From Thermodesulfobacteriota bacterium (GTDB lineage Bacteria > Desulfobacterota > Desulfobulbia > Desulfobulbales > SURF-16): 64,000 nt of DNA. The position numbers were made by a program, and so were the translations under genes. Of the stretch, positions 14,326 through 42,137 are shown piece by piece. The stretch lies in NCBI GenBank assembly GCA_039714595.1, contig JBDLJA010000005.1, forward strand, positions 41,890 to 105,889. The letters run 5' to 3'. Under the pieces are notes generated by a model. It did no database searches and was not told the origin of the DNA. It saw only the letters and a list, made by a program, of their open reading frames with translations. The first letter of the stretch is position 1, and each line of letters begins with the position of its first letter.

Positions 14326-14934
14326 TTACAGTTTGCAGTAAGAAAATTGCGGCGGCCCTTTGATGATCATCTCGGCAATGGTCATCTTCACCTTGGGCAG
14401 CACCTGGCGCTTAACCCCCAGCCACTCCATCTCAATAGCGATGAACTCCCGAAAAAAGGGGGTGCGATCCATCCGGGCCAAGCCCTCTTCCTCCGGGGCG
14501 ATCTCCTGACAGCGAAAACAGCCGGGAAACTCCAAGCGCTTGCCATCGGGCCGGGTCATGGCCGCCGGCACCCCGTGGAGACGGCAGATGAGGAGCCGGT
14601 GCTCATAGGGCAGGCAGAGGCCATCTTCATTCAAGGGGCACATGATCTGGGGGCGCTCATCGGCGGCCAGGGCCTTTTGGCTCTCCTCCTTGTAACTCCT
14701 GGCCCGCTCTGCAATGGCCGCCCTCTTCTCCTCCGGCAGCCGGCTTAGCCCCTCCCACAGATAGGCCCACTCGGTATAGGTGTGATGGAGGAAATAGCTG
14801 TCGCAGCAGTTATCGGGGCAGCCCTCGCAGGTAAATTGCAAATCGCCGGCCACCCGGTCATACTCTTGCTGAATCCCCTCATATACCTTGGCCACCCGGG
14901 CCGAGATCTCTGGGGGCAATATTGTGGAACTCAT
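14326..14934 (-). CDS. YkgJ/UPF0153-type Cys-rich putative Fe-S/zinc protein
   Basis: CxxCxxCC motif (FTCEGCPDNCCDSYF). I prefer the internal ATG at 14934 (GGAG 6 nt upstream) to the TTG at 14946. Confidence 0.7.
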   Translation of the reverse strand: MSSTILPPEISARVAKVYEGIQQEYDRVAGDLQFTCEGCPDNCCDSYFLHHTYTEWAYLWEGLSRLPEEKRAAIAERARSYKEESQKALAADERPQIMCPLNEDGLCLPYEHRLLICRLHGVPAAMTRPDGKRLEFPGCFRCQEIAPEEEGLARMDRTPFFREFIAIEMEWLGVKRQVLPKVKMTIAEMIIKGPPQFSYCKL

Positions 14935-15039
14935 AAATAACTCCAAAAAAAAGTTAACAATAAATTGCTTACGGTTTAAGATTTTCTATTCATTAATTAA
15001 GCAAATTCAGGAAAAATTCTTTCCCATAAGCCATCCATA

Positions 15040-15067
15040 AACCGTCAACCGTCAACCGTAAACCGTA
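15040..15067. repeat. Tandem heptanucleotide array (AACCGTC)x2(AACCGTA)x2
   Basis: Read directly: aaccgtc aaccgtc aaccgta aaccgta, 35 nt upstream of the PMM/PGM start. An inverted single unit TTACGGTTT lies at 14969-14977. Confidence 0.85.
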
Positions 15068-15102
15068 ATTTTTAGTCCCCCATTGCCTAAGGAACCACAC
15101 CC

Positions 15103-16458
15103 ATGTCCCACCTCTCCTGCTTCAAGGCCTACGACATTCGGGGCCAGGTCCCCGATGAGTTAGACGAAAAACTGGCCTTTCGCATCGGCCAGGCCTATGC
15201 CGCCCACTTCAAGCCGCAGAAGATGGCCCTGGCCCATGACATCAGGCTTTCCGGCCCATCACTCACCACTGCCCTGTGCGAGGGTTTCCTCCAGGCCGGG
15301 GTTGACGTGGTCCACCTGGGTCAATGCGGGACAGAGGAGATCTACTTTGCCGCCTCGCACCTTAATGACGTTGACGGGGCCATCATTGTCACGGCCAGCC
15401 ATAACCCGGCCGCCTACAACGGCATGAAGATGGTGCTTAAAGGGGCCATCCCGGTCTCCGGCAGCAGCGGACTCAGGGAGATCGAGGCCCTGGCCGCCGC
15501 CGCTCACGAGGTGCACGGCCGCAACCGGGGCGAGGCAAATAAGCTTGACAACCGTCCCGCCTATATCGACCACCTGCTGAGCTATATCAAGGCGGAGACC
15601 CTCTCCCCTCTAAAGATCGTGGCCAATCCCGGCAACGGTGGGGCCGGCCCCATAATTGCCGCCCTGGCCCCCCACCTGCCCTTCCAGTTCATCGCCATCG
15701 ACGATGAACCGGACGGCCACTTCCCCAACGGGGTCCCCAACCCCCTGCTCCCTGAGAACCGGGCCGCCACCAGTGAGGCGGTGCGGCTTCACGGCGCCCA
15801 GCTTGGCCTGGCCTGGGACGGTGACTTTGACCGCTGCTTCTTCTTTGACGAGGCGGGCAACTTCATCGAGGGCTACTACATTGTGGGGCTGCTGGCCCAG
15901 GCCATGCTGAAAAAGGCGCCTGGGGCCAAGATCATCCACGACCCCCGCCTCACCTGGAACACCCAGGAGCTGGTTAGAGCGGCCGGTGGCCAGCCCATCA
16001 TGACCAAGACCGGTCATGCCTTTATTAAAGAGAGGATGCGCAGTGAAGACGCCGTCTATGGCGGCGAGATGAGCGCCCACCACTACTTCCGCGATTTTTC
16101 CTACTGCGATTCGGGCATGATTCCCTGGCTGCTGATAGCCGAGCTCCTCTGCCAGCAGCAGGTGAGCATCTCCAGCCTGGTGGCCCAGGCCAAAGAGAGC
16201 TTTCCCGTCTCCGGCGAGATCAACAATAAGGTGGCAGAGCCAGACGAAATAATCGCCGCGGTGGAGGAGAGGTACCTGAGTGAGTGCCAGTCCCGTGACG
16301 ATATCGACGGCCTCTCCATGAGCTTTGACAACTGGCGCTTTAACATCCGCAAATCAAACACCGAGCCGGTCCTCCGCCTCAACGTGGAGAGCCGGGGAGA
16401 TGTACCCCTGATGGAGGAGAAGACGGCCGAGCTGCTGGCCATGATCAAGGGGGGCTGA
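15103..16458 (+). CDS. Phosphomannomutase/phosphoglucomutase
   Basis: 451-aa ORF with the active-site phosphoserine loop TASHNPAAYNGMK and metal loop DGDFDR. Confidence 0.9.
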   Translation: MSHLSCFKAYDIRGQVPDELDEKLAFRIGQAYAAHFKPQKMALAHDIRLSGPSLTTALCEGFLQAGVDVVHLGQCGTEEIYFAASHLNDVDGAIIVTASHNPAAYNGMKMVLKGAIPVSGSSGLREIEALAAAAHEVHGRNRGEANKLDNRPAYIDHLLSYIKAETLSPLKIVANPGNGGAGPIIAALAPHLPFQFIAIDDEPDGHFPNGVPNPLLPENRAATSEAVRLHGAQLGLAWDGDFDRCFFFDEAGNFIEGYYIVGLLAQAMLKKAPGAKIIHDPRLTWNTQELVRAAGGQPIMTKTGHAFIKERMRSEDAVYGGEMSAHHYFRDFSYCDSGMIPWLLIAELLCQQQVSISSLVAQAKESFPVSGEINNKVAEPDEIIAAVEERYLSECQSRDDIDGLSMSFDNWRFNIRKSNTEPVLRLNVESRGDVPLMEEKTAELLAMIKGG

Positions 16459-16851: not shown

Positions 16852-18180
16852 TTACAAAAACTTCTTCTCCAGCTGGTCGGAGAGATGCTCCAGCTGACCC
16901 CGGACCGAGCCATCGCGATTGATCTTATTATTGATGGTCTTCACCGAGTGGACCACGGTGGAGTGGTCGCGGTTCAACGCCTTGCCGATCTCGCTCAACG
17001 GGTACTCCGTATGCTTGCGGGCCAGGTACATGGCCACCTGGCGGGGGAAGGCGATGGCCCGCTTACGCGACTTGGACTGGAGATCGTTGATGGTAACCCT
17101 GAACTTACCGGCGATGAAATCACGAATCATCTCCGGGGTGATCTGGCGGCCGGCGCCCACAATCCCCTGAAGGATCTGCTTGACCATATCCAGGTCAGGA
17201 TCGCAGCCAAGGAGAGCGGTCTGGGCCTTAAGGCCGACGATGATCGACTCACAGCGCCTGATGTCACCCTTGACGTTTTCGGCAATATAACCAACCAGAT
17301 CCTCAGAGAGCAGCAGGTCAGAATTACCCGCCTTGCGGCGAATGATCTTCTCGCGGGTGGCAAAACCGGGGGGGTTGATGGTGGTGACCAAGCCTAAGGA
17401 GAGGCGGGAACGCAGGCCAGGGTCCAGGTTTTCAATCTCGGCCGGCCCCTTGGATGAGGTCATTACCACCCGCTTGCCACTCTCCATGAGGAGATCCAGG
17501 GTCTCGGCAAACTCGGCCTGGGTCTTGGCCCGGCCGGCCAAGGCCTGCACATCTTCAATGAGCAGGACATCACAGTTGCGCTGATACTTGGAGCGAAACT
17601 TGCCCATGGTATTGGCCTTGATCCCCTTGACCATCTCCACCGTCAGCTGCTGGGCCGTGACATACTGCATCCGGGTCTGGGGCGAGGTGCCAACTATATG
17701 ATGGGCCACCGACTGGGCCAGATGGCTCTTACCCAGGCCGGTACCGCCATTGACATAGATACAGTTGCCCAGGGCCGGCCGGTCATCGGCCAGGGCCTGG
17801 CAGGCCGAGTGGGCCAGGGCGTTACACTCCCCCACCATGAACTCAGAAAAGGTATAGCGGGGATGGAGGGTCTTGGTGAATGGCGCCACCTTCTCCATGG
17901 CGGGCAGCCGCATCTGGCGGGTGCGGGGTGATCCGGAGAGCTGCTGCCCCACTGCCGCCTCCAGGCTGACCTTGACCTGGCCGTGGCCCAGTTCCTGAAG
18001 ACACTCCTGGATGGGGCCCATGACATTGTCCTGGAAACGATCACAGAAAAAGGTGTCAGGGCCGGTGAGAACCAGGCTGTCATCCACCTGTTCTTCCGCG
18101 GTCACCGGCGAAATCCAGAGAGAATAAACATTTTCGGGGATTTTTTGCTGAAGCTGTTTTTTTATTGATTGCCACAACAT
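16852..18180 (-). CDS. dnaA: Chromosomal replication initiator protein DnaA
   Basis: 442-aa ORF. AAA+ Walker A GGTGLGKSHL, LLIEDVQ, and a C-terminal DNA-binding region ...RQVAMYLARKHT...IGKALNRDHSTVVHS. Confidence 0.93.
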   Translation of the reverse strand: MLWQSIKKQLQQKIPENVYSLWISPVTAEEQVDDSLVLTGPDTFFCDRFQDNVMGPIQECLQELGHGQVKVSLEAAVGQQLSGSPRTRQMRLPAMEKVAPFTKTLHPRYTFSEFMVGECNALAHSACQALADDRPALGNCIYVNGGTGLGKSHLAQSVAHHIVGTSPQTRMQYVTAQQLTVEMVKGIKANTMGKFRSKYQRNCDVLLIEDVQALAGRAKTQAEFAETLDLLMESGKRVVMTSSKGPAEIENLDPGLRSRLSLGLVTTINPPGFATREKIIRRKAGNSDLLLSEDLVGYIAENVKGDIRRCESIIVGLKAQTALLGCDPDLDMVKQILQGIVGAGRQITPEMIRDFIAGKFRVTINDLQSKSRKRAIAFPRQVAMYLARKHTEYPLSEIGKALNRDHSTVVHSVKTINNKINRDGSVRGQLEHLSDQLEKKFL

Positions 18181-18838
18181 GTAGGTATCACTCTGCTCAT
18201 ACTTTGGTTAGGAAGGGGTGTGCCTTGGTGAAACTGATGGGGTGATATTTAGCTGAAAGGGGAAAAACAGTCAAAAGCGGTTTTGCAAGATTTCCCTAAA
18301 AAAAGAATAGAGTTATCAACACTCTGCCCCCCCCTTGCCCCCCGCTGTTTCCGACGCCATCCGCCCCTATTAGTGCAGAAAAACGTCGTTTTTAAAAATG
18401 GCCTTAAAAAGAGCGTTAATATAAGCCCTTACCCATAACCTAGCGATATTTATCGGCTTTTAACTAAACCCTAAAGGACCTTTTTTGCTCCCGTTTCCTG
18501 GCAAATACTCCCAAATCCTCACTTTTCCACCCAAAAGACGAAAAAAACAAACAGCTGTCAAGCTGACTATCTAGCCGAACCCCGGCCCAGCGGCCCTCAG
18601 CGGCCATTTACCTGCCCCGGAAAAAGTCCAAAAAAAATATTAATTATTTTGTTAGGATAACTATTCATTTGCTATACTTCTGCCTTTCTCAAACCAGGAG
18701 CAGAACTGGCTCATTGTGGCCAGCCTCCAGTTAAGAAAATTCAGCGCCGTTTCCCTGAGCTGCAGGCCTTCGCCATGGTTGCCAGGCCCCTGAACATCAA
18801 CCGGCCTATCAGGCCGACCAGGTCCTGGGCCAAGGGTC
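18181..18838. other. Candidate oriC / dnaA promoter region
   Basis: Largest non-coding gap in the window (658 bp), directly upstream of dnaA and relatively AT-rich. Only degenerate DnaA-box-like 9-mers: TTATCAACA at 18312-18320, TTTTCCACC at about 18524-18532, TTATCCTAA (reverse strand) at about 18652-18662. AT-rich tract at about 18630-18680. Confidence 0.3.
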
Positions 18839-21206: not shown

Positions 21207-21281
21207 TATTTACAGCCACCACCCTATCTGCCTATAGTAGTTTCAGAGATCTAAAGTTCGCTTTACCCGACACGCATCACT

Positions 21282-21296
21282 TGATAATAATTATCA
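21282..21296. promoter_or_regulatory. Fur-type 7-1-7 operator (perfect)
   Basis: TGATAATAATTATCA is a perfect palindrome and a 15/15 match to the Fur 7-1-7 consensus TGATAATnATTATCA. It lies in the AT-rich gap upstream of the 756-aa ORF. Confidence 0.6.
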
Positions 21297-21310
21297 TTAA
21301 TGTTTTAATT

Positions 21311-21325
21311 AGATAATTATTATCC
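21311..21325. promoter_or_regulatory. Second Fur-type box overlapping the -35/spacer
   Basis: aGATAATTATTATCc has a perfect 6-1-6 core (13/15 to consensus). It is 29 bp centre-to-centre from box 1 and 8 nt upstream of TATAAT. Confidence 0.5.
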
Positions 21326-21333
21326 TAACCTCC

Positions 21334-21339
21334 TATAAT
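21334..21339 (+). promoter_or_regulatory. Candidate -10 hexamer (TATAAT)
   Basis: Consensus TATAAT 42 nt upstream of the GTG at 21381. No good -35; that position is occupied by Fur-like box 2. Confidence 0.4.
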
Positions 21340-21380
21340 CATTTGCCAAGACAGCATCTGCCCCCAAATCCAGGAAAATA

Positions 21381-23651
21381 GTGATGAGCGAAAGCGGCCC
21401 TGCCCCTGACAAAACTCAAAAGATCCTCTTTCTCGGCTCCAACGCCAAGATTCACAACCTGCCCATCAAGGAGGTGAGCCTGCTGGAAGAGGGGAGCCTG
21501 CCCTCCTATGGCTATAATCCCGGCGATTTTGTCGAGCTGCTGGCCGGCTCGGTGAGTGTTGAGCGCGGCCGCCTGGACCAGTGCGTCACCTGGCTCTCAA
21601 CCTACCTCACCTCAGAAGAGCTCAGCCCCGAGATCACCACCATCACCTATGGCAAGAAGAAGGATATCTTCCAGATCTTCCGTAAACATAGCCAGAGTGA
21701 CATGTCCCAGAAACATGGCTGGTTCATGGTCCATCAGATCCTGCCCTTCTGCGATCGCGGCGAGGACTATGAAAACTTCACCATCAACCGCCACAATCGT
21801 GACCAACTCAAGGACCAGGACGGGGTAATCATAATTGACGACGGCGGCCACCCCCCCCAGGTGGCGGCGGAGTTGAAGAAGTTGAGCCCCGACGCCTGGG
21901 TCATCGGCATGGGGATATCGGTGGCCCACTGGCATACCTGGGCCAAGTCATATGGCGACAACTTCATCCTCCTGGGCCGTTTGGCCGACCTGGAGACCAC
22001 CCGGATGGAGATGGACAGCTCGGCGGTGTGGGAATCCATCGTGGCCATGTGCCTGCGGGCCCTGCGCTCTTCAGAGGTGGGCATCTGGGACGCCAGCCAT
22101 AACCGCTTCCGCTGCCACGTCATGATCGAGATGTTTCCCCACGGCATCCTGATGATCTCGCCGGAGCGCATCTACTTCCGCCATCGCCCCGGCTCCCTGC
22201 CGGAGAAGAGTTCGTCGCGCCAGAAGGGTTCCATGCCCGCCTACGACACCCTGGTGGCCGCCATGCTCACCACGGAAAACATCCGGGCCCGGGGGCTGAT
22301 GAGTGGCCGGGACCACATTCACCTCTTCACCAAGATGGTCCTGGCCCACTGGCAGTGGCTCCACGAGAAGGGCTACTGCTTCGACGGCTCCCTGCGCTTT
22401 CCCGTTCTAAACTCCACCCCCCCTTACCTGGAGAGTGAGTCGTACGATAACGACCTGCCGCCCGACCCGTTTTTCATCGAGCTGCCCCCCTTCTCCGACC
22501 CCTTTGACAAGACCCTGGAGCAGGTGGCCAGCCAGAGCTGGAACGAGGCGAGCAAGGCGGGCCTGCGCTCGTTTTTTGACCAGTCCCACCTGAAATCGCG
22601 GCCCAAATCGCAGCTTGCCCCCCTGGGCTACATGGATATCATTTTAGAGGTGATCCACCAGCTGAAAGAGGAGGTGAGCCGCAAGCAGGGCTTCAAGAAC
22701 CTGCGCATCTTCAACGTGGGCCACCTGCGCACCACCGACCCGGCCGAGATCGGCCCGGTCCTCACCCTCCAGTCGGTGATGGACTCCTACGTCTCCAAGG
22801 AGAGCTTCCAGCGCCCCTTATGCATCGGCGTCTTCGGCCCCCCCGGCTCCGGCAAGTCGTTTGCCGTCAAGGAGGTGGCCCGGGTGATCGGCAAAAAATT
22901 CAACGAGAACCCCTTTGACTTCTATGAGTTCAACCTCACCCAGTTTGACTCGCCGGACGAGATAAACTCATCCATCGACCTGGTCCGGGCCTCGGTGGCC
23001 CAGGGCAAGGTGCCCATCACCTTCTGGGATGAGTTTGACTGCCGCTACCAGGACCATGAGTTTGGCTACCTGCGCTACTTCCTGCCCTCCATGCAGGACG
23101 GCGTCACCTACAACCATGGCACCCCCTACTATATCGGCCGCTCCATCTTTGTCTTTGCCGGCGGGGTCAAGTCCAACTGGGGGGGGATGGAGGCGTTGCT
23201 TGACCCGGACGACCAGGGCAGCCTCCAGAAGGCCAAGACCCTGAAGATCCCTGATTTTATGAGCCGGCTGCGGGTGGTCTTAGATATCGACGGCATCGCC
23301 ATCCCGGAGGAGCTTTTGCGCGACTCGGCCAGCGGCCAGGAGCTTGAGGAGCTGCGCCGCATCTTGCTGAAACGGGCCTTTATCATCGCCCATCAGATGG
23401 ACACCCACTGGAAGAAGGCGGCCCGCAAGACCTCGGGCCTGCTCCTGCGCCTGCTTCTGGCCAACTATAAGTTCGGGGCCCGCTCCATCGAGGCGGTGAT
23501 CGAGGCGAGCCGGGCCGCCGACCGCCTGGTCTACGGCCTGCCGGAGCTCATCGGCCCCTCCGGGGCCCGGATCCACGCCGACTGGCGGGTGGACCTGGAG
23601 CGCCGCATCGATCAGGTCCGCAAAGAGCAGGGCTTGCGCTCGGTCTGGTAG
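21381..23651 (+). CDS. Orphan 756-aa protein: degenerate pfkB/ribokinase-like N-terminal half + classic AAA+ ATPase C-terminal half
   Basis: C-terminal half has Walker A GVFGPPGSGKSF, Walker B ITFWDEFD, FLPSMQDG, FVFAGG and a GARSIEAVIEAS sensor-2-like segment. By eye the N-terminal half follows the pfkB order (KILFLGSN..., DGVIIIDDGG..., SMPAYDTLVAAM in place of GAGD). The start could be the ATG at 21384. Confidence 0.85.
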   Translation: MMSESGPAPDKTQKILFLGSNAKIHNLPIKEVSLLEEGSLPSYGYNPGDFVELLAGSVSVERGRLDQCVTWLSTYLTSEELSPEITTITYGKKKDIFQIFRKHSQSDMSQKHGWFMVHQILPFCDRGEDYENFTINRHNRDQLKDQDGVIIIDDGGHPPQVAAELKKLSPDAWVIGMGISVAHWHTWAKSYGDNFILLGRLADLETTRMEMDSSAVWESIVAMCLRALRSSEVGIWDASHNRFRCHVMIEMFPHGILMISPERIYFRHRPGSLPEKSSSRQKGSMPAYDTLVAAMLTTENIRARGLMSGRDHIHLFTKMVLAHWQWLHEKGYCFDGSLRFPVLNSTPPYLESESYDNDLPPDPFFIELPPFSDPFDKTLEQVASQSWNEASKAGLRSFFDQSHLKSRPKSQLAPLGYMDIILEVIHQLKEEVSRKQGFKNLRIFNVGHLRTTDPAEIGPVLTLQSVMDSYVSKESFQRPLCIGVFGPPGSGKSFAVKEVARVIGKKFNENPFDFYEFNLTQFDSPDEINSSIDLVRASVAQGKVPITFWDEFDCRYQDHEFGYLRYFLPSMQDGVTYNHGTPYYIGRSIFVFAGGVKSNWGGMEALLDPDDQGSLQKAKTLKIPDFMSRLRVVLDIDGIAIPEELLRDSASGQELEELRRILLKRAFIIAHQMDTHWKKAARKTSGLLLRLLLANYKFGARSIEAVIEASRAADRLVYGLPELIGPSGARIHADWRVDLERRIDQVRKEQGLRSVW

Positions 23652-23767: not shown

Positions 23768-23844
23768 GCACCAGTAGCTCAGCTGGATAGAGTACATGAC
23801 TACGAATCATGGGGTCGCAGGTTCGAATCCTGCCTGGTGTACCA
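23768..23844 (+). tRNA. tRNA-Arg (anticodon ACG)
   Basis: Folded by eye into a cloverleaf. Acceptor GCACCAG/CTGGTGT, D-arm AGCTCAGCTGGATAGAGT, anticodon stem CATGA/TCATG with loop CTACGAA, T-arm GCAGGTTCGAATCCTGC, encoded CCA. Confidence 0.93.
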
Positions 23845-23889: not shown

Positions 23890-24157
23890 CATTTTCTCCG
23901 GGACAGTAAGGTCCGCCAAGGCTGAAAAATGATCCGGCTCGATTTCAATCAAGACCCGGAATATACAGTGGTTACGCAGGCATTTGCTTATTATCTCCAA
24001 CGCTTAGGGATGAACCCAAGCCAGGACAGACTCGCGTAACGACAATCTATCTTGTCTGGCCAGTCCAGACTTTCCACGCCGAAGCAGCAGACGATGCCTC
24101 GGCCCTAAAACAAAGTGGTTTGCAGCACCAGGAACCACGCATATGGAGCATTACGAC

Positions 24158-24361
24158 ATGGCAGAAGGAACAGTTAAGTGGTTTAACGATGCAAAGGGTT
24201 TTGGTTTTATTGAGCAAAGTGACGGCGGCAAGGATGTGTTTGTCCATCACTCCGCGATTCAGTCCGAGGGCTTCAAGTCCCTGACCGAAGGCGCTAAGGT
24301 GACCTACGACGTTGTTGACGGGCCCAAGGGACCGTCGGCCGAGAATGTTGTTCAGCAGTAG
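24158..24361 (+). CDS. cspA: Cold-shock protein (CspA family)
   Basis: [20 protein letters not shown]...VFVHHSAI carries the RNP1/RNP2 motifs. GGAG lies 9 nt upstream of the ATG at 24158. Confidence 0.92.
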
Positions 24362-24462: not shown

Positions 24463-24615
24463 TTGGCTAGAACAAACTACTCATATGAGAAGCGCCAGAA
24501 GGAATTGGCGAAGAAAAAGAAGAAAGAGGAAAAAAGGCTACGCAAGCTGGCGAAAAAAAAGGCTGCGGCCGGGGAAGATGAGAATCCTCTTCCAGATGAA
24601 GATACCTTGGACTAG
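24463..24615 (+). CDS. Small highly basic Lys-rich protein (50 aa, TTG start)
   Basis: Not in the ORF track because it is under 60 aa. Reads ttg gct aga ... gac tag = (M)ARTNYSYEKRQKELAKKKKKEEKRLRKLAKKKAAAGEDENPLPDEDTLD. AAGGA lies 9 nt upstream. There is no in-frame ATG between the upstream stop (24409) and the TTG. The track ORF 24485-24733 is the wrong frame of the same region. Confidence 0.4.
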   Translation: MARTNYSYEKRQKELAKKKKKEEKRLRKLAKKKAAAGEDENPLPDEDTLD

Positions 24616-30587: not shown

Positions 30588-31100
30588 TTAACGGGTGACC
30601 AGCTCCACCACCACAAAGATCACCATGGCGGCGGTTACCGCCATCTCAAAGATAAAGGAGACCACGGTGCCCAGCACCGCGCCGAGGCCGGCCTTAAGCA
30701 CCTTCTCCTTCTGCCGGTCCCGCCACAGCTCGCCGCCCACGGCGCCGACAAAGGTGCCCAGCAGCATGCCGAAGATGGCCGAGCCGGGGATGGGCAGAAC
30801 CAGGCCCAGAAAGAGACCGATCACCGCGCCAACCATGCCGGCCCCGGAGGCGCCAAAACTCTTGGCCCCCAGCATGGTCAGGAGATACTGGCCGCCCACC
30901 GCCACCAGGGCGAGGACGGCCAGGATAGCGATATCCACCAGGGAGATGGGTAAAAAATCGGTGAAGAGACCGTAGAGCAGGGCGCCCACCACGATCAGGG
31001 CCGGGCCGGGAATAACCGGTAGCATGGTGCCGAGGATGCCAAGGGCCAGAAAGGCCAGGAGCATTACGTCGTAAATGGTCAGGAGGAGGAGCGAGTCCAT
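30588..31100 (-). CDS. DUF456-family membrane protein
   Basis: Hydrophobic multi-pass protein with Gly-rich helices (LPVIPGPALIVVGALLYG..., GASGAGMVGAVIG...). I moved the start to the ATG at 31100, 1 nt after the upstream gene's stop. Confidence 0.75.
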   Translation of the reverse strand: MDSLLLLTIYDVMLLAFLALGILGTMLPVIPGPALIVVGALLYGLFTDFLPISLVDIAILAVLALVAVGGQYLLTMLGAKSFGASGAGMVGAVIGLFLGLVLPIPGSAIFGMLLGTFVGAVGGELWRDRQKEKVLKAGLGAVLGTVVSFIFEMAVTAAMVIFVVVELVTR

Positions 31101-31101
31101 T

Positions 31102-31833
31102 TCAGCTGATAACCTGCCCCGTAGGCTGCCAGCCCGCGGCCGCCCCCTTACCCTTAGGGCGACGAAAGCACTCGACGATGTCACCCTCCCGGGCCTGATG
31201 AAAGTCCTTGATCTGCAGCCCCACCTCTTGGCCGGGCCGCGCCATTTTCACCGCGTCCTGCTCGATGTGGAGCGATCTGATCACCCCGCTATAGACCGGG
31301 CCCATGGCCGAGATAAGGCGGAAGGAGTCGCCCAAGCGCAGCAACCCCTGTTCCACCCGGCAACCGAGGATGATACCGTGCCGGGATGATTTAAAGAGGG
31401 CGATGACCTTTGCCGAGCCGGTCACCTCGTCTGCCTCCTCCCGGGCCGGCAGCAGGGAACGGGCAATACCCACCAGGTCGGCGCAAAGGGCATAGATTAC
31501 CTCATAGAGGCGAATCTCCACCCCATGTTCGGCGCAGAGCCTGACCAGCCGCCGGCCCACCGGGACGCTGAAGCCTAAGATCAACTTAGAGCCGGTCTCG
31601 GCCTGGAGCAGATCCCCCTGAGTCACCTCACCCACCCCGCGCTGGACAATGACAATCTCCACCCCGGCCACCTTGAGTTCGCTGATGGCACCGCACACCG
31701 CCTCCAGGACGCCGGCCGTATCCGCCTTGACCACGATCTCCAGGAGCCTAGTATCGTCCCCACCATCATGACGGGTCACGGGACCAGGCGCCGGTGCGCC
31801 TCTCTTACGCCTATGTTTTCTGCGGTGGGCCAT
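31102..31833 (-). CDS. Stand-alone paralog of the translation initiation factor IF-2 C-terminal domains (no G domain)
   Basis: The 243-aa ORF aligns by eye along its length with the IF2 C1/C2 region. VVKADTAGVLEAV...GVGEVTQGDLLQA...ILGFSVP...GVEIRLYEVIYAL compares with E. coli VLKADVQGSVEAI...GVGGITETDATLA...LVGFNVR...LDLRYYSVIYNL. The C2 beta-barrel part ...GCRVEQG...VYSGVIRSLHIEQDAV...GQEVGLQIKDF...GDIVECF is also present. The basic N-terminal tail MAHRRKHRRKRG replaces the GTPase. RBS GAAGGA. Confidence 0.8.
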   Translation of the reverse strand: MAHRRKHRRKRGAPAPGPVTRHDGGDDTRLLEIVVKADTAGVLEAVCGAISELKVAGVEIVIVQRGVGEVTQGDLLQAETGSKLILGFSVPVGRRLVRLCAEHGVEIRLYEVIYALCADLVGIARSLLPAREEADEVTGSAKVIALFKSSRHGIILGCRVEQGLLRLGDSFRLISAMGPVYSGVIRSLHIEQDAVKMARPGQEVGLQIKDFHQAREGDIVECFRRPKGKGAAAGWQPTGQVIS

Positions 31834-41315: not shown

Positions 41316-42137
41316 TCAGCGCCCCTGCCACCAGTAATAGGGAACCGCGCTTGGCGCGGGGGCCTCCTGGTTATAATAGCTCTCCAGGTAACGGTTGATA
41401 TCATGGCGGCCGCCCTGGCGCGGCAGATCTGCCGGTTCGCTAAACTCCATGGCCAGGCAGCGCCGCGGGCCAAAAAATATGCCATTCACCATGAGGCGCC
41501 AGAGATTAGTCTTCGCCTGGGCCAGGAGATGGGGCGCCGGGCCAGCGCTCCGGGAGAAGGAGGAGCCCCAGAGGCCGGTGGTGCGCACCAGCACCACCCG
41601 GGCGTCTGTCACCTGGGCCAGGATGGTGGCCACCCCGCTGTTGCCCTGCAACGACTCGTAACGGCTCCGGTAGAGGCGGCCGGCCGGATAGAGCAGCACC
41701 TCATCGCCCCGCTCCAGGGCCTTGACCACCCGCTCCAGCCCCTTAACCACCCCCGCCCGGGAGTGCCTCCCCTTCCGGCCTATGCTGGGAATGGTTATCA
41801 CCCCCAGAACCCCCATGAAACGGCGGATAAGTGGCAGGTTAACCTGGTCCTCATCGGCCAGGGGCCGGGGCCTAAATAGCCTGTAGAGGGTGGCCAGGAC
41901 CAGGGGGGGATCGATCAGGGCCGGGTGATTGGCCAGAAAGAGGATACCCCGGCCGTCCGGGCCAGCGATACGGTCAAGCCCCTGCACCTCAACCCGGTAG
42001 CGGAGAAAGAGAAGGCGGCGCAGTAATTTAATTACGACTGGCGCCATTCTTTTTCCCCGGATGTAGCCCTTCAGCCCCGGCATCTCAAGCCACCCCCCTA
42101 AGCAAAGCCAGAACGACCTGCTTAAAAAAGCAGTCAT
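41316..42137 (-). CDS. Lysophospholipid (1-acyl-sn-glycerol-3-phosphate) acyltransferase family protein
   Basis: The HX4D acyltransferase motif reads NHPALID, and YPAGR lies downstream. The start is uncertain. Confidence 0.8.
   Translation of the reverse strand: MTAFLSRSFWLCLGGWLEMPGLKGYIRGKRMAPVVIKLLRRLLFLRYRVEVQGLDRIAGPDGRGILFLANHPALIDPPLVLATLYRLFRPRPLADEDQVNLPLIRRFMGVLGVITIPSIGRKGRHSRAGVVKGLERVVKALERGDEVLLYPAGRLYRSRYESLQGNSGVATILAQVTDARVVLVRTTGLWGSSFSRSAGPAPHLLAQAKTNLWRLMVNGIFFGPRRCLAMEFSEPADLPRQGGRHDINRYLESYYNQEAPAPSAVPYYWWQGR

Follow-up and report, generated by a model that had tools for sequence, protein, structure and literature searches.

Two Fur-type boxes upstream of a conserved Desulfobulbales ATPase gene: probable operators of a PerR-like repressor

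We analysed a 64,000-nucleotide stretch of DNA from a bacterium of the Desulfobulbales (contig JBDLJA010000005.1; hereafter the window), and in particular the 174-bp gap at 21207-21380 that precedes a gene whose 755-residue product combines a ribokinase-like fold with an AAA+ ATPase domain. Two palindromic boxes in this gap are probably operators of a PerR-like repressor of the Fur family, from which the gene would be released under O2 or H2O2 stress; we put the probability of this reading at about 0.68. The gene is more likely to belong to the oxygen-stress response than to iron uptake, because the same boxes are found on PerR promoters in this bacterial group.

The boxes and their recurrence in related genomes

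Box 1 (TGATAATAATTATCA, 21282-21296) is a perfect 7-1-7 palindrome, and box 2 (AGATAATTATTATCC, also written aGATAATTATTATCc, 21311-21325) has a perfect 6-1-6 core; both were read directly from the sequence, and neither is assigned to a strand. A previous sequence-only reading of this DNA had placed both boxes and a TATAAT (21334-21339) correctly, with box 2 starting 29 bp after box 1 and the TATAAT lying 8 nt past the end of box 2. It had also described box 1 as a full match to the 7-1-7 Fur consensus (TGATAATnATTATCA), which holds: box 1 agrees at all 14 specified positions, and box 2 at 12 of the 14. Within the 64 kb, the two boxes are the sole occurrences of the 6-1-6 core GATAATNATTATC with at most one mismatch (0.02 expected), and none of 100 shuffles of the sequence gave two such copies. 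Resampling of the gap with its own first-order Markov model gave a probability of 0.06 for any perfect 6-1-6 palindrome, 0.0025 for two or more, and 9e-5 for the GATAAT palindrome. The gap is not, as had been claimed, the most AT-rich stretch of the window: its GC content of 0.356 ranks second among 174-bp stretches, after 14918-15091 (0.322, and 0.23 over 100 bp), which lies just 5' of a phosphoglucomutase-family gene at 15103. The window has just one more AT-rich perfect 6-1-6 palindrome (GTAATTnAATTAC, 42023-42035), which is located within an acyltransferase open reading frame (ORF; 41316-42137) and is probably there by chance.

We collected 80 orthologue loci from 80 related Desulfobulbales genomes (930 kb; loci from related DNA are cited by L numbers) and scanned the 400 bp upstream of each orthologue. 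Some of the orthologues do keep the boxes, which was one of the checks proposed in the sequence-only reading. Perfect GATAATNATTATC (= GATAATnATTATC) sites occur seven times in the 930 kb, and six of these lie within 230 bp upstream of an orthologue, always in the form TTGATAAT: at -61 from the start codon in L002, -60 in L003, -57 in L006, -55 in L014, -230 in L011 and -166 in L018. Degenerate versions are present in L004, L017 and L015 and as a second site in L011, and tandem boxes, as in the window, are also seen in L006 and L011. Among perfect 6-1-6 palindromes in the 930 kb, GATAAT is the joint most frequent. Box 1 has a counterpart at the equivalent position in L002, L003, L004 (TTGATAATGATTACTG) and L090 (TTGATAATAGTTATCAA), in each case, as in the window, approximately 40 nt downstream of a predicted promoter (P1, see below); over these five sequences, the P1 hexamers are conserved at 0.97 and box 1 at 0.93, compared to 0.61-0.71 for the flanks. 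At least three unrelated neighbours are seen on the upstream side of the box (an APH-kinase gene, a Smr/rubrerythrin cluster and, in L090, an MscS gene), so the boxes travel with the gene. Judged by this conservation, box 1 appears to be an ancestral, conserved operator, and the site is in all likelihood functional rather than a product of chance. The boxes are limited to the closer clade, with protein identities of at least 70%.

The same type of box stands on the promoters of perR and rubrerythrin (rbr) genes. Upstream of perR it reads AATTGATAATTATTATCTATAAT in L082/L083 (a perfect match), TTAGTAATTATTATCC in L093, TTAGTAATTATTATCT in L094 (the pattern TTAGTAATTATTATC(C/T) being common to L093 and L094) and ATAGTAATTATTACTTAT in L095; the promoter of a perR-like gene in L020 carries TAGTAATTATTATCA, and a perfect TGATAATGATTATCA is found upstream of a metagenomic perR-like gene that is followed by rbr (L135). 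On the rubrerythrin promoters of L027 (ATAGTAATTATTATCAA; ATAGTAATTATTATCAActataat) and L005 (CTAGTAATTATTATCAA; TTGACA..CTAGTAATTATTATCAAtataat) the box abuts the TATAAT, and the rubrerythrin promoter of L084 has the box type as well. Box 2 differs at two positions from the perR-promoter site of L093. Three genomes contribute both a perR promoter and an orthologue. In GCA_002868945.1, perR (L083) has TTGATAATTATTATC and the orthologue (L090) has TTGATAATAGTTATCAA; in GCA_041562995.1, the perR site (L094, AGTAAT-T-ATTATC) and the orthologue site (L004, GATAAT-G-ATTACT) are made of the same two half-sites; and in GCA_030597865.1 (perR in L093, orthologue in L010) the box on the orthologue side is degenerate.

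A position weight matrix trained solely on nine perR and rbr promoter sites (maximum 29.6 bits) has box 1 as its top match over the 64 kb, at 26.2 bits, and gives box 2 20.3 bits. Over the 80 loci it yields 10 matches of at least 24 bits, of which six lie upstream of the orthologue, one on a perR promoter and one on an rbr promoter.

The further two matches of this strength (L005:244-260 and L006:13350-13366) may be regulon members or chance; one stands 5' of a MoxR/AAA_5-like ATPase fragment and the other 5' of a small Cys-containing protein (MANSTFKNCTACGKKW...). The matrix also assigns 19.6 bits to a site, AAAATATTAATTATTTT, in the AT-rich region of the window (18630-18700) upstream of dnaA (16852-18180, minus strand). 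There it is followed by TTGCTATACT, which resembles the -10 context of P1, and then by AGGAG, with neither a convincing ORF nor an Rfam RNA behind it.

The linked regulators and their precedents

The Fur-family protein of L020 has B. subtilis PerR (2FE3) as its best solved relative, at 96 bits, and scores 71 bits with S. pyogenes PerR, at most 67 bits with solved Fur proteins and 43-49 bits with solved Zur proteins. Operons of the type perR-(rubrerythrin)-desulfoferrodoxin-ferritin-like-flavodiiron protein start with genes for its orthologues (57-62% identity), and the ferritin-like gene is present within box-bearing perR operons. All six Desulfobulbales regulators that we aligned to B. subtilis PerR keep H37, D85, H91, H93, D104 and both CxxC pairs, and all six have Arg at the position of N61 (TVYRNL). 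The pattern extends to 80 further relatives drawn from metagenomes, with Asp at the D104 position in 79 and Arg at the N61 position in 76. Forty-nine of them have an rbr, dfx, roo or ferritin-like gene within 3.5 kb, and the 7-1-7 sites upstream of these relatives are of the TGATAAT or TAGTAAT type.

In the account given in passages of PMC8638967 that cite Parent 2013 and Caux-Thang 2015, Asp versus Glu in the regulatory site sets PerR and Irr apart from Fur, Zur, Mur and Nur, while Asn versus Arg in helix H4 sets readers of PerR boxes apart from readers of Fur boxes. In related genomes, the regulators linked to the box or to the gene carry Asp where B. subtilis PerR has D104, not the Glu of a Fur-type sensor, and they combine an Arg reader with TGATAAT/TAGTAAT boxes instead of the Asn and TTATAAT of canonical PerR. 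Since the Asn-to-Arg switch rule makes an Arg reader and boxes of this kind fit together, the regulators are best described as a variant PerR and not as the canonical type. This also offers an explanation for the appearance of the box: it looks Fur-like because this PerR subfamily carries Arg, not Asn, in the DNA-reading helix.

The sequence-only reading had taken the boxes for Fur operators, and the part of it that stands is that they are genuine Fur-family 7-1-7 operator-type sites, located on a predicted promoter and conserved. Its view that the TGATAAT half-site is specific to Fur and excludes PerR fails in this lineage, because TGATAAT/TAGTAAT boxes precede rubrerythrin genes and the perR-like genes that head rbr/dfx/ferritin/flavodiiron operons, because the regulators are of the PerR type with an Arg reader, and because a Fur-like box has been assigned to PerR in the same order before (Rodionov et al. 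2004). With the box type on perR and rbr promoters and PerR-type regulators linked to it, placement of the gene in an iron-responsive regulon gives way to the oxygen-stress response as the more likely one. Nor is the gene an orphan, as discussed below.

Rodionov et al. assigned the Fur-like box GtTAATgATnATcATTAaC to PerR in Desulfotalea psychrophila (PMC545781). As here, it is an AT-rich palindrome, found on the perR and roo1-roo2 promoters, and the roo1 site includes GATAATCATTACT, the half-site pair of the L004 box upstream of the orthologue. The targets in that study were perR and roo only; the gene described here was not among them, and the Arg/Asn explanation was not noted there. The same authors found no FUR orthologue in D. 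psychrophila, the Desulfobulbales genome then available, and gave other delta-proteobacteria a different Fur box, TGAAAATnATTTTCA (WTGAAAATNATTTTCAW).

In C. difficile, the rbr-perR-sor operon has been shown by experiment to be PerR-repressed and H2O2-inducible (PMC8546684; PMC11980386). Like the PerR regulons of strict anaerobes (C. difficile rbr1-perR-sor and C. acetobutylicum PerR, with B. subtilis PerR as the structural paradigm), the Desulfobulbales system has His/Asp ligands and two CxxC pairs, a perR gene in an operon with rubrerythrin, desulfoferrodoxin, ferritin-like and flavodiiron genes, probable autoregulation, to judge from the box on perR's own promoter, and a putative operator in the form of a 7-1-7 inverted repeat on the promoter. 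It differs in its reader residue (Arg in 76 of 80, not Asn) and in its boxes (TGATAAT/TAGTAAT, not TTATAAT). The gene also differs from known PerR targets in that it encodes an uncharacterised ribokinase-fold/AAA+ protein and not a known enzyme for the detoxification of reactive oxygen species.

Compared to the classical Fur box (E. coli GATAATGATAATCATTATC; B. subtilis 7-1-7 TGATAATnATTATCA), box 1 is identical to the 7-1-7 consensus and its placement suits a repressor, and the likely reader residue of the Desulfobulbales regulators is Arg in helix H4, as in Fur. Unlike in a Fur system, the linked regulators have a PerR-type Asp sensor, the genes presumed to be co-regulated serve oxygen defence and not iron uptake, and the Fur box predicted for delta-proteobacteria is TGAAAATnATTTTCA (PMC545781). 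The engineered PerR N61R switch mutant (Caux-Thang 2015, as cited in PMC8638967), which joins a PerR-type sensor to an Arg in helix H4 and recognises Fur boxes, appears to have natural equivalents in the Desulfobulbales regulators.

Promoters, proposed regulation and competing explanations

Upstream of the boxes, beginning 3 nt past the stop codon of the upstream kinase gene, is a sigma-70-like promoter on the plus strand, P1 (21209-21238), with TTTACA (21209-21214), an 18-nt spacer and TATAGT (21233-21238). It was found by a consensus scan (10 of 12 positions) and by conservation: TTTAC(T/A)-N18-TATA(C/G)T is invariant across eight aligned upstream regions, as are TTTAC and TGCCTATA.T, even in L090 with its different upstream gene. 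P1 presumably functions as a promoter. The same scan finds a second plus-strand sigma-70-like candidate, P2 (21310-21339; 10 of 12 positions), with TAGATA (21310-21315), an 18-nt spacer and TATAAT (21334-21339), and box 2 therefore covers its -35 hexamer and spacer, in keeping with the earlier suggestion that this box occupies the place of a -35. P2 and box 2 have no counterpart among seven aligned relatives and together look like a second promoter-operator module specific to the window. Box 1 may fully cover an extended -10 promoter (21281-21309, plus strand), consisting of TTGATA (21281-21286), a 17-nt spacer ending in TGT (21301-21303) and TTTAAT (21304-21309). This candidate comes from our reading of the alignment and was not listed by the consensus scan; the arrangement TTGATA-N14-TGn-TAnnnT recurs in L002, L003, L004 and L090 as in the window. 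A Shine-Dalgarno-like AGGAAA (21372-21377, plus strand), read from the sequence, lies 6 nt before the ATG at 21384. Box 2 thus overlaps predicted P2 and box 1 the possible extended -10 promoter, and both boxes lie downstream of the better-conserved P1.

The co-repressor of PerR is Fe(II) or Mn(II). In the proposed mechanism, a metallated (Fe2+ or Mn2+) regulator dimer would occupy box 1 and box 2 in the anoxic, reduced state. Box 1, some 40 nt downstream of P1, would overlap the possible extended -10 promoter at its -35 and spacer, box 2 would cover those of P2, and binding would block transcription of the downstream gene. The Arg in helix H4 would be the residue that reads the G of TGATAAT. 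O2 or H2O2 (or peroxide derived from O2) would then oxidise the His ligands of the regulator, leading to its release and to expression of the gene, which on this evidence would be part of the oxygen-defence response. A link to iron would survive only indirectly, through Fe(II)/Mn(II) as co-repressor and through the ferritin-like gene in perR operons. We infer which protein binds, whether it represses, what induces the gene and where transcription starts; observed are the conservation of the box, its presence on perR and rbr promoters as well, the regulator residues and the neighbouring genes.

Several observations weigh against control by a PerR-like repressor. The boxes lie downstream of the start predicted from the best-conserved promoter, P1, which would be a less classical geometry for repression. 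A strong box is present in only approximately 7 of 27 close-clade loci and has been lost in the closest orthologue (L001), and regulation of the gene would accordingly be patchy across the clade. Since the 64 kb hold no Fur-family gene, we infer a PerR-like regulator in the window's organism from its relatives. Moreover, a separate, Glu-type Fur could bind the same box. If instead a canonical, iron-sensing Fur binds the boxes and keeps the gene repressed as long as Fe2+ is abundant, the ATPase would belong to an iron-starvation regulon. In favour of this are the 14 of 14 positions that box 1 shares with the B. subtilis/E. coli-type 7-1-7 consensus, the 6-1-6 core of box 2, the overlap of both boxes with predicted promoter elements, their conservation upstream of orthologues and the ferritin-like gene in operons with the same box. 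We nevertheless regard it as unlikely. The regulators next to this box type or to the orthologue are all of the Asp and not the Glu type and head rbr/dfx/roo operons, and the box itself is on rubrerythrin and perR promoters. No iron-uptake gene with the box (at most one mismatch) was found in approximately 1 Mb of related DNA, although no feoB is present there. A tblastn search of the window and the 80 loci with E. coli Fur, FeoB and FtnA and B. subtilis Fur as queries revealed no feoB or Fur and only the L020 regulator and a ferritin in L073. The absence of a FUR orthologue from D. psychrophila and the different Fur box of other delta-proteobacteria (Rodionov 2004, PMC545781) point in the same direction.

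Less likely still is that the boxes bind a different metal regulator from the Fur family (Zur-like or Mur-like) or a repressor unrelated to it, for instance the Rrf2-type protein of cydAB operons. In L020 and L081, a ZnuA(His-rich)-ZnuC-ZnuB transporter is transcribed divergently from the PerR-like gene, with TAGTAATTATTATCA in the shared intergenic region, an arrangement that also counts against the PerR-like reading in that it would equally fit a regulator of metal uptake. We disfavour Zur on three grounds: the L020 protein scores 96 bits to PerR versus 43-49 to solved Zur, it is 57-62% identical to the regulators heading rbr/dfx/roo operons, and znuA is nearby in none of the 80 metagenomic relatives. 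What speaks for Rrf2 is the seventh perfect GATAAT palindrome, in L043, which lies 36 nt upstream of an Rrf2-DUF4492-cydAB operon. The conserved motif of these operons differs, however (AAGAYnnTAAnnRTCTTATTTRTC, in approximately 30 orthologous promoters), and we rejected the L043 palindrome as a seventh PerR/Fur site, since it is a coincidental variant of that motif and not a conserved GATAAT box. Least probable, to the point that we give it hardly any weight, is that there is no dedicated regulator and that the palindromes are chance or by-products of an AT-rich promoter, with its -35-like TTGATA and UP-element-like sequence. The gap is indeed the second most AT-rich stretch of the window, the TTGATA within box 1 would also make a good -35 hexamer, conservation does not extend to box 2 and many orthologues have no box at all. 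Against this stand the probability of 9e-5 for a GATAAT palindrome at the gap's own composition, the rank of GATAAT in the 930 kb with six of seven sites upstream of an orthologue, the conservation of both half-sites and not of TTGATA alone, and the identical boxes on perR and rbr promoters. Two further candidates for the gap were rejected: a structured RNA or riboswitch in the leader, as the only Rfam match is to the tRNA downstream of the gene (at 23768-23841), and an oriC (dnaA is 3 kb away), as DnaA boxes are not enriched (10 versus 6.25 expected) and none is in the gap.

The regulated protein and its gene neighbourhoods

The gene that the putative operators would control runs on the plus strand from 21384 (ATG) or 21381 (GTG) to 23651 and was characterised from its ORF, profile searches and a structure model. 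Its product has an N-terminal ribokinase/PfkB-like fold (approximately residues 10-400) and a C-terminal AAA+ ATPase domain. Having been called an orphan, it turns out to have more than 340 full-length homologues at 61-78% identity (78% for the best orthologue). A genome scan places it in 235 species-level genomes, and hence in at least 235 species; the named homologues all belong to the Desulfobulbales (Desulfobulbaceae, Desulfocapsaceae, Desulfurivibrionaceae and Candidatus Electronema), and the full-length protein of this order forms a single cluster at 50% identity.

Assignment to the AAA+ ATPases, as in the sequence-only reading, is borne out by the invariant Walker A (GPPGSGKS) and Walker B (FWDEFD) motifs and by a PF00004 match above the cut-off, albeit a marginal one (residues 484-554; 22.4-24.1 bits versus a cut-off of 21.2) that covers the N-terminal half of the profile only. 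The AlphaFold model is confident for residues 10-400 or so only; with no homologue below 61% identity available, it models the AAA+ half poorly, at a predicted local distance difference test score (pLDDT) below 50. Foldseek top matches of the N-terminal domain are PfkB kinases (E approximately 3e-9, target TM approximately 0.5, 10-12% identity). The domain has no Pfam match to the ribokinase/PfkB family even at E = 1, and the position of the GAGD anion-hole motif reads P-A-Y-D, with only the Asp invariant. It is, going by the model, a ribokinase fold and, going by its sequence, not a member of the PfkB family. A sequence-profile search of the PDB with the homologue alignment found no match, and PADLOC and NCBIfam had none for the 756-aa protein or its neighbours, so it is not a recognised defence system.

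Residues 430-735 or thereabouts are 35-42% identical to the ATPase module of multidomain AAA+ ATPases with more than 2,000 cluster representatives; in P0262, P0280 and P0360 the alignment extends over part of the N-terminal domain too. These relatives carry RyR (PF02026, often C-terminal) or Ham1-like domains, which the protein here lacks. At 35-42% identity, P0248, P0249, P0251 and P0253 are among the distant relatives of the module; they often end in RyR PF02026, one having Ham1/ITPase, and the whole appears to be a large, uncharacterised family of multidomain ATPases.

Independent support for a role in oxygen defence is suggested by the following neighbours of the orthologues, whose predicted functions are all of this kind. 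In 35 of the 80 loci, Rrf2-DUF4492-cydA-cydB immediately precedes the orthologue in the same orientation, a rubrerythrin gene is approximately 2.4 kb away in 6, dfx-ferritin-roo lies upstream in L073, and L020 and L081 have a perR-like gene immediately before the orthologue (in L020 in the same orientation). Synteny in the window itself was discarded as a functional clue: the APH-family kinase, tRNA-Arg, cold-shock protein, DedA/VTT protein and sbcCD are uninformative, and only the kinase is conserved (7 loci).

The regulatory logic of a Fur-family repressor on a 7-1-7 operator is well known, and the finding, which adds one probable target to a familiar type of regulator, is incremental rather than surprising. 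Its use lies elsewhere. For motif-based annotation it is a caution that a perfect "Fur box" does not identify Fur. An Arg-reader PerR subfamily appears to use Fur-type boxes here, and would then do in nature what the Asn-to-Arg switch does by design. The boxes also give a first functional handle on an uncharacterised, highly conserved protein (61-78% identity) of at least 235 Desulfobulbales species, and one candidate gene for the oxygen tolerance of sulfate reducers and cable bacteria, an active question. A broader and more speculative possibility, which we think doubtful as it stands, is that the Desulfobulbales, cable-bacteria relatives included, have in this protein a previously unrecognised component of oxygen defence, with a ribokinase-fold ligand-sensing domain and an AAA+ motor, wired according to lineage to a natural PerR/Fur hybrid repressor (PerR sensor, Fur-type reader) or to the cytochrome bd oxidase operon. 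Should the clade have no Fur-family regulator besides this hybrid, as reported for D. psychrophila with its lack of a FUR orthologue, iron and peroxide signals could be integrated through one Fur-type box.

The cyd-linked arrangement is that of a Desulfocapsa-type clade (35 loci within L028-L080; e.g., L043:2150-5990). The Rrf2-cydAB promoters share the conserved motif TTGAC...AAGAYnnTAAnnRTCTTATTTRTC, presumably the Rrf2 operator, and cydB is followed by a 30-codon ORF (MTTFILLGYVAVIVISYKGAVIALDKSGLL in L028). Approximately 25 nt before the orthologue start codon is a strong terminator-like hairpin with a 14-bp stem and a T-run (L043:5931-5961; also L033:5932-5944, and in the upstream region of L028). 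It leaves no space for a promoter of the orthologue's own, so that expression there may depend on read-through from cyd. The divergent pair of perR-like gene and ZnuA(His-rich)-ZnuC-ZnuB-type transporter, with the TAGTAATTATTATCA-type site between them (L020:2747-5824 and L081:1928-4996), may represent PerR-linked Mn/Zn uptake or a paralogue acting as Zur.

Elsewhere in the window, a 243-aa ORF (31102-31833, minus strand) resembles translation initiation factor 2 in two parts alone, C-terminal IF-2 and EF-Tu domain 2. Overlapping with a DUF456 ORF (30588-31184), it may be a truncated infB, an infB with wrongly drawn limits, or a frameshift. The 1.25-kb gap 3' of the gene holds a tRNA-Arg(ACG) (23768-23844), a cold-shock-protein gene (24143-24361) and a small lysine-rich ORF (24463-24615).

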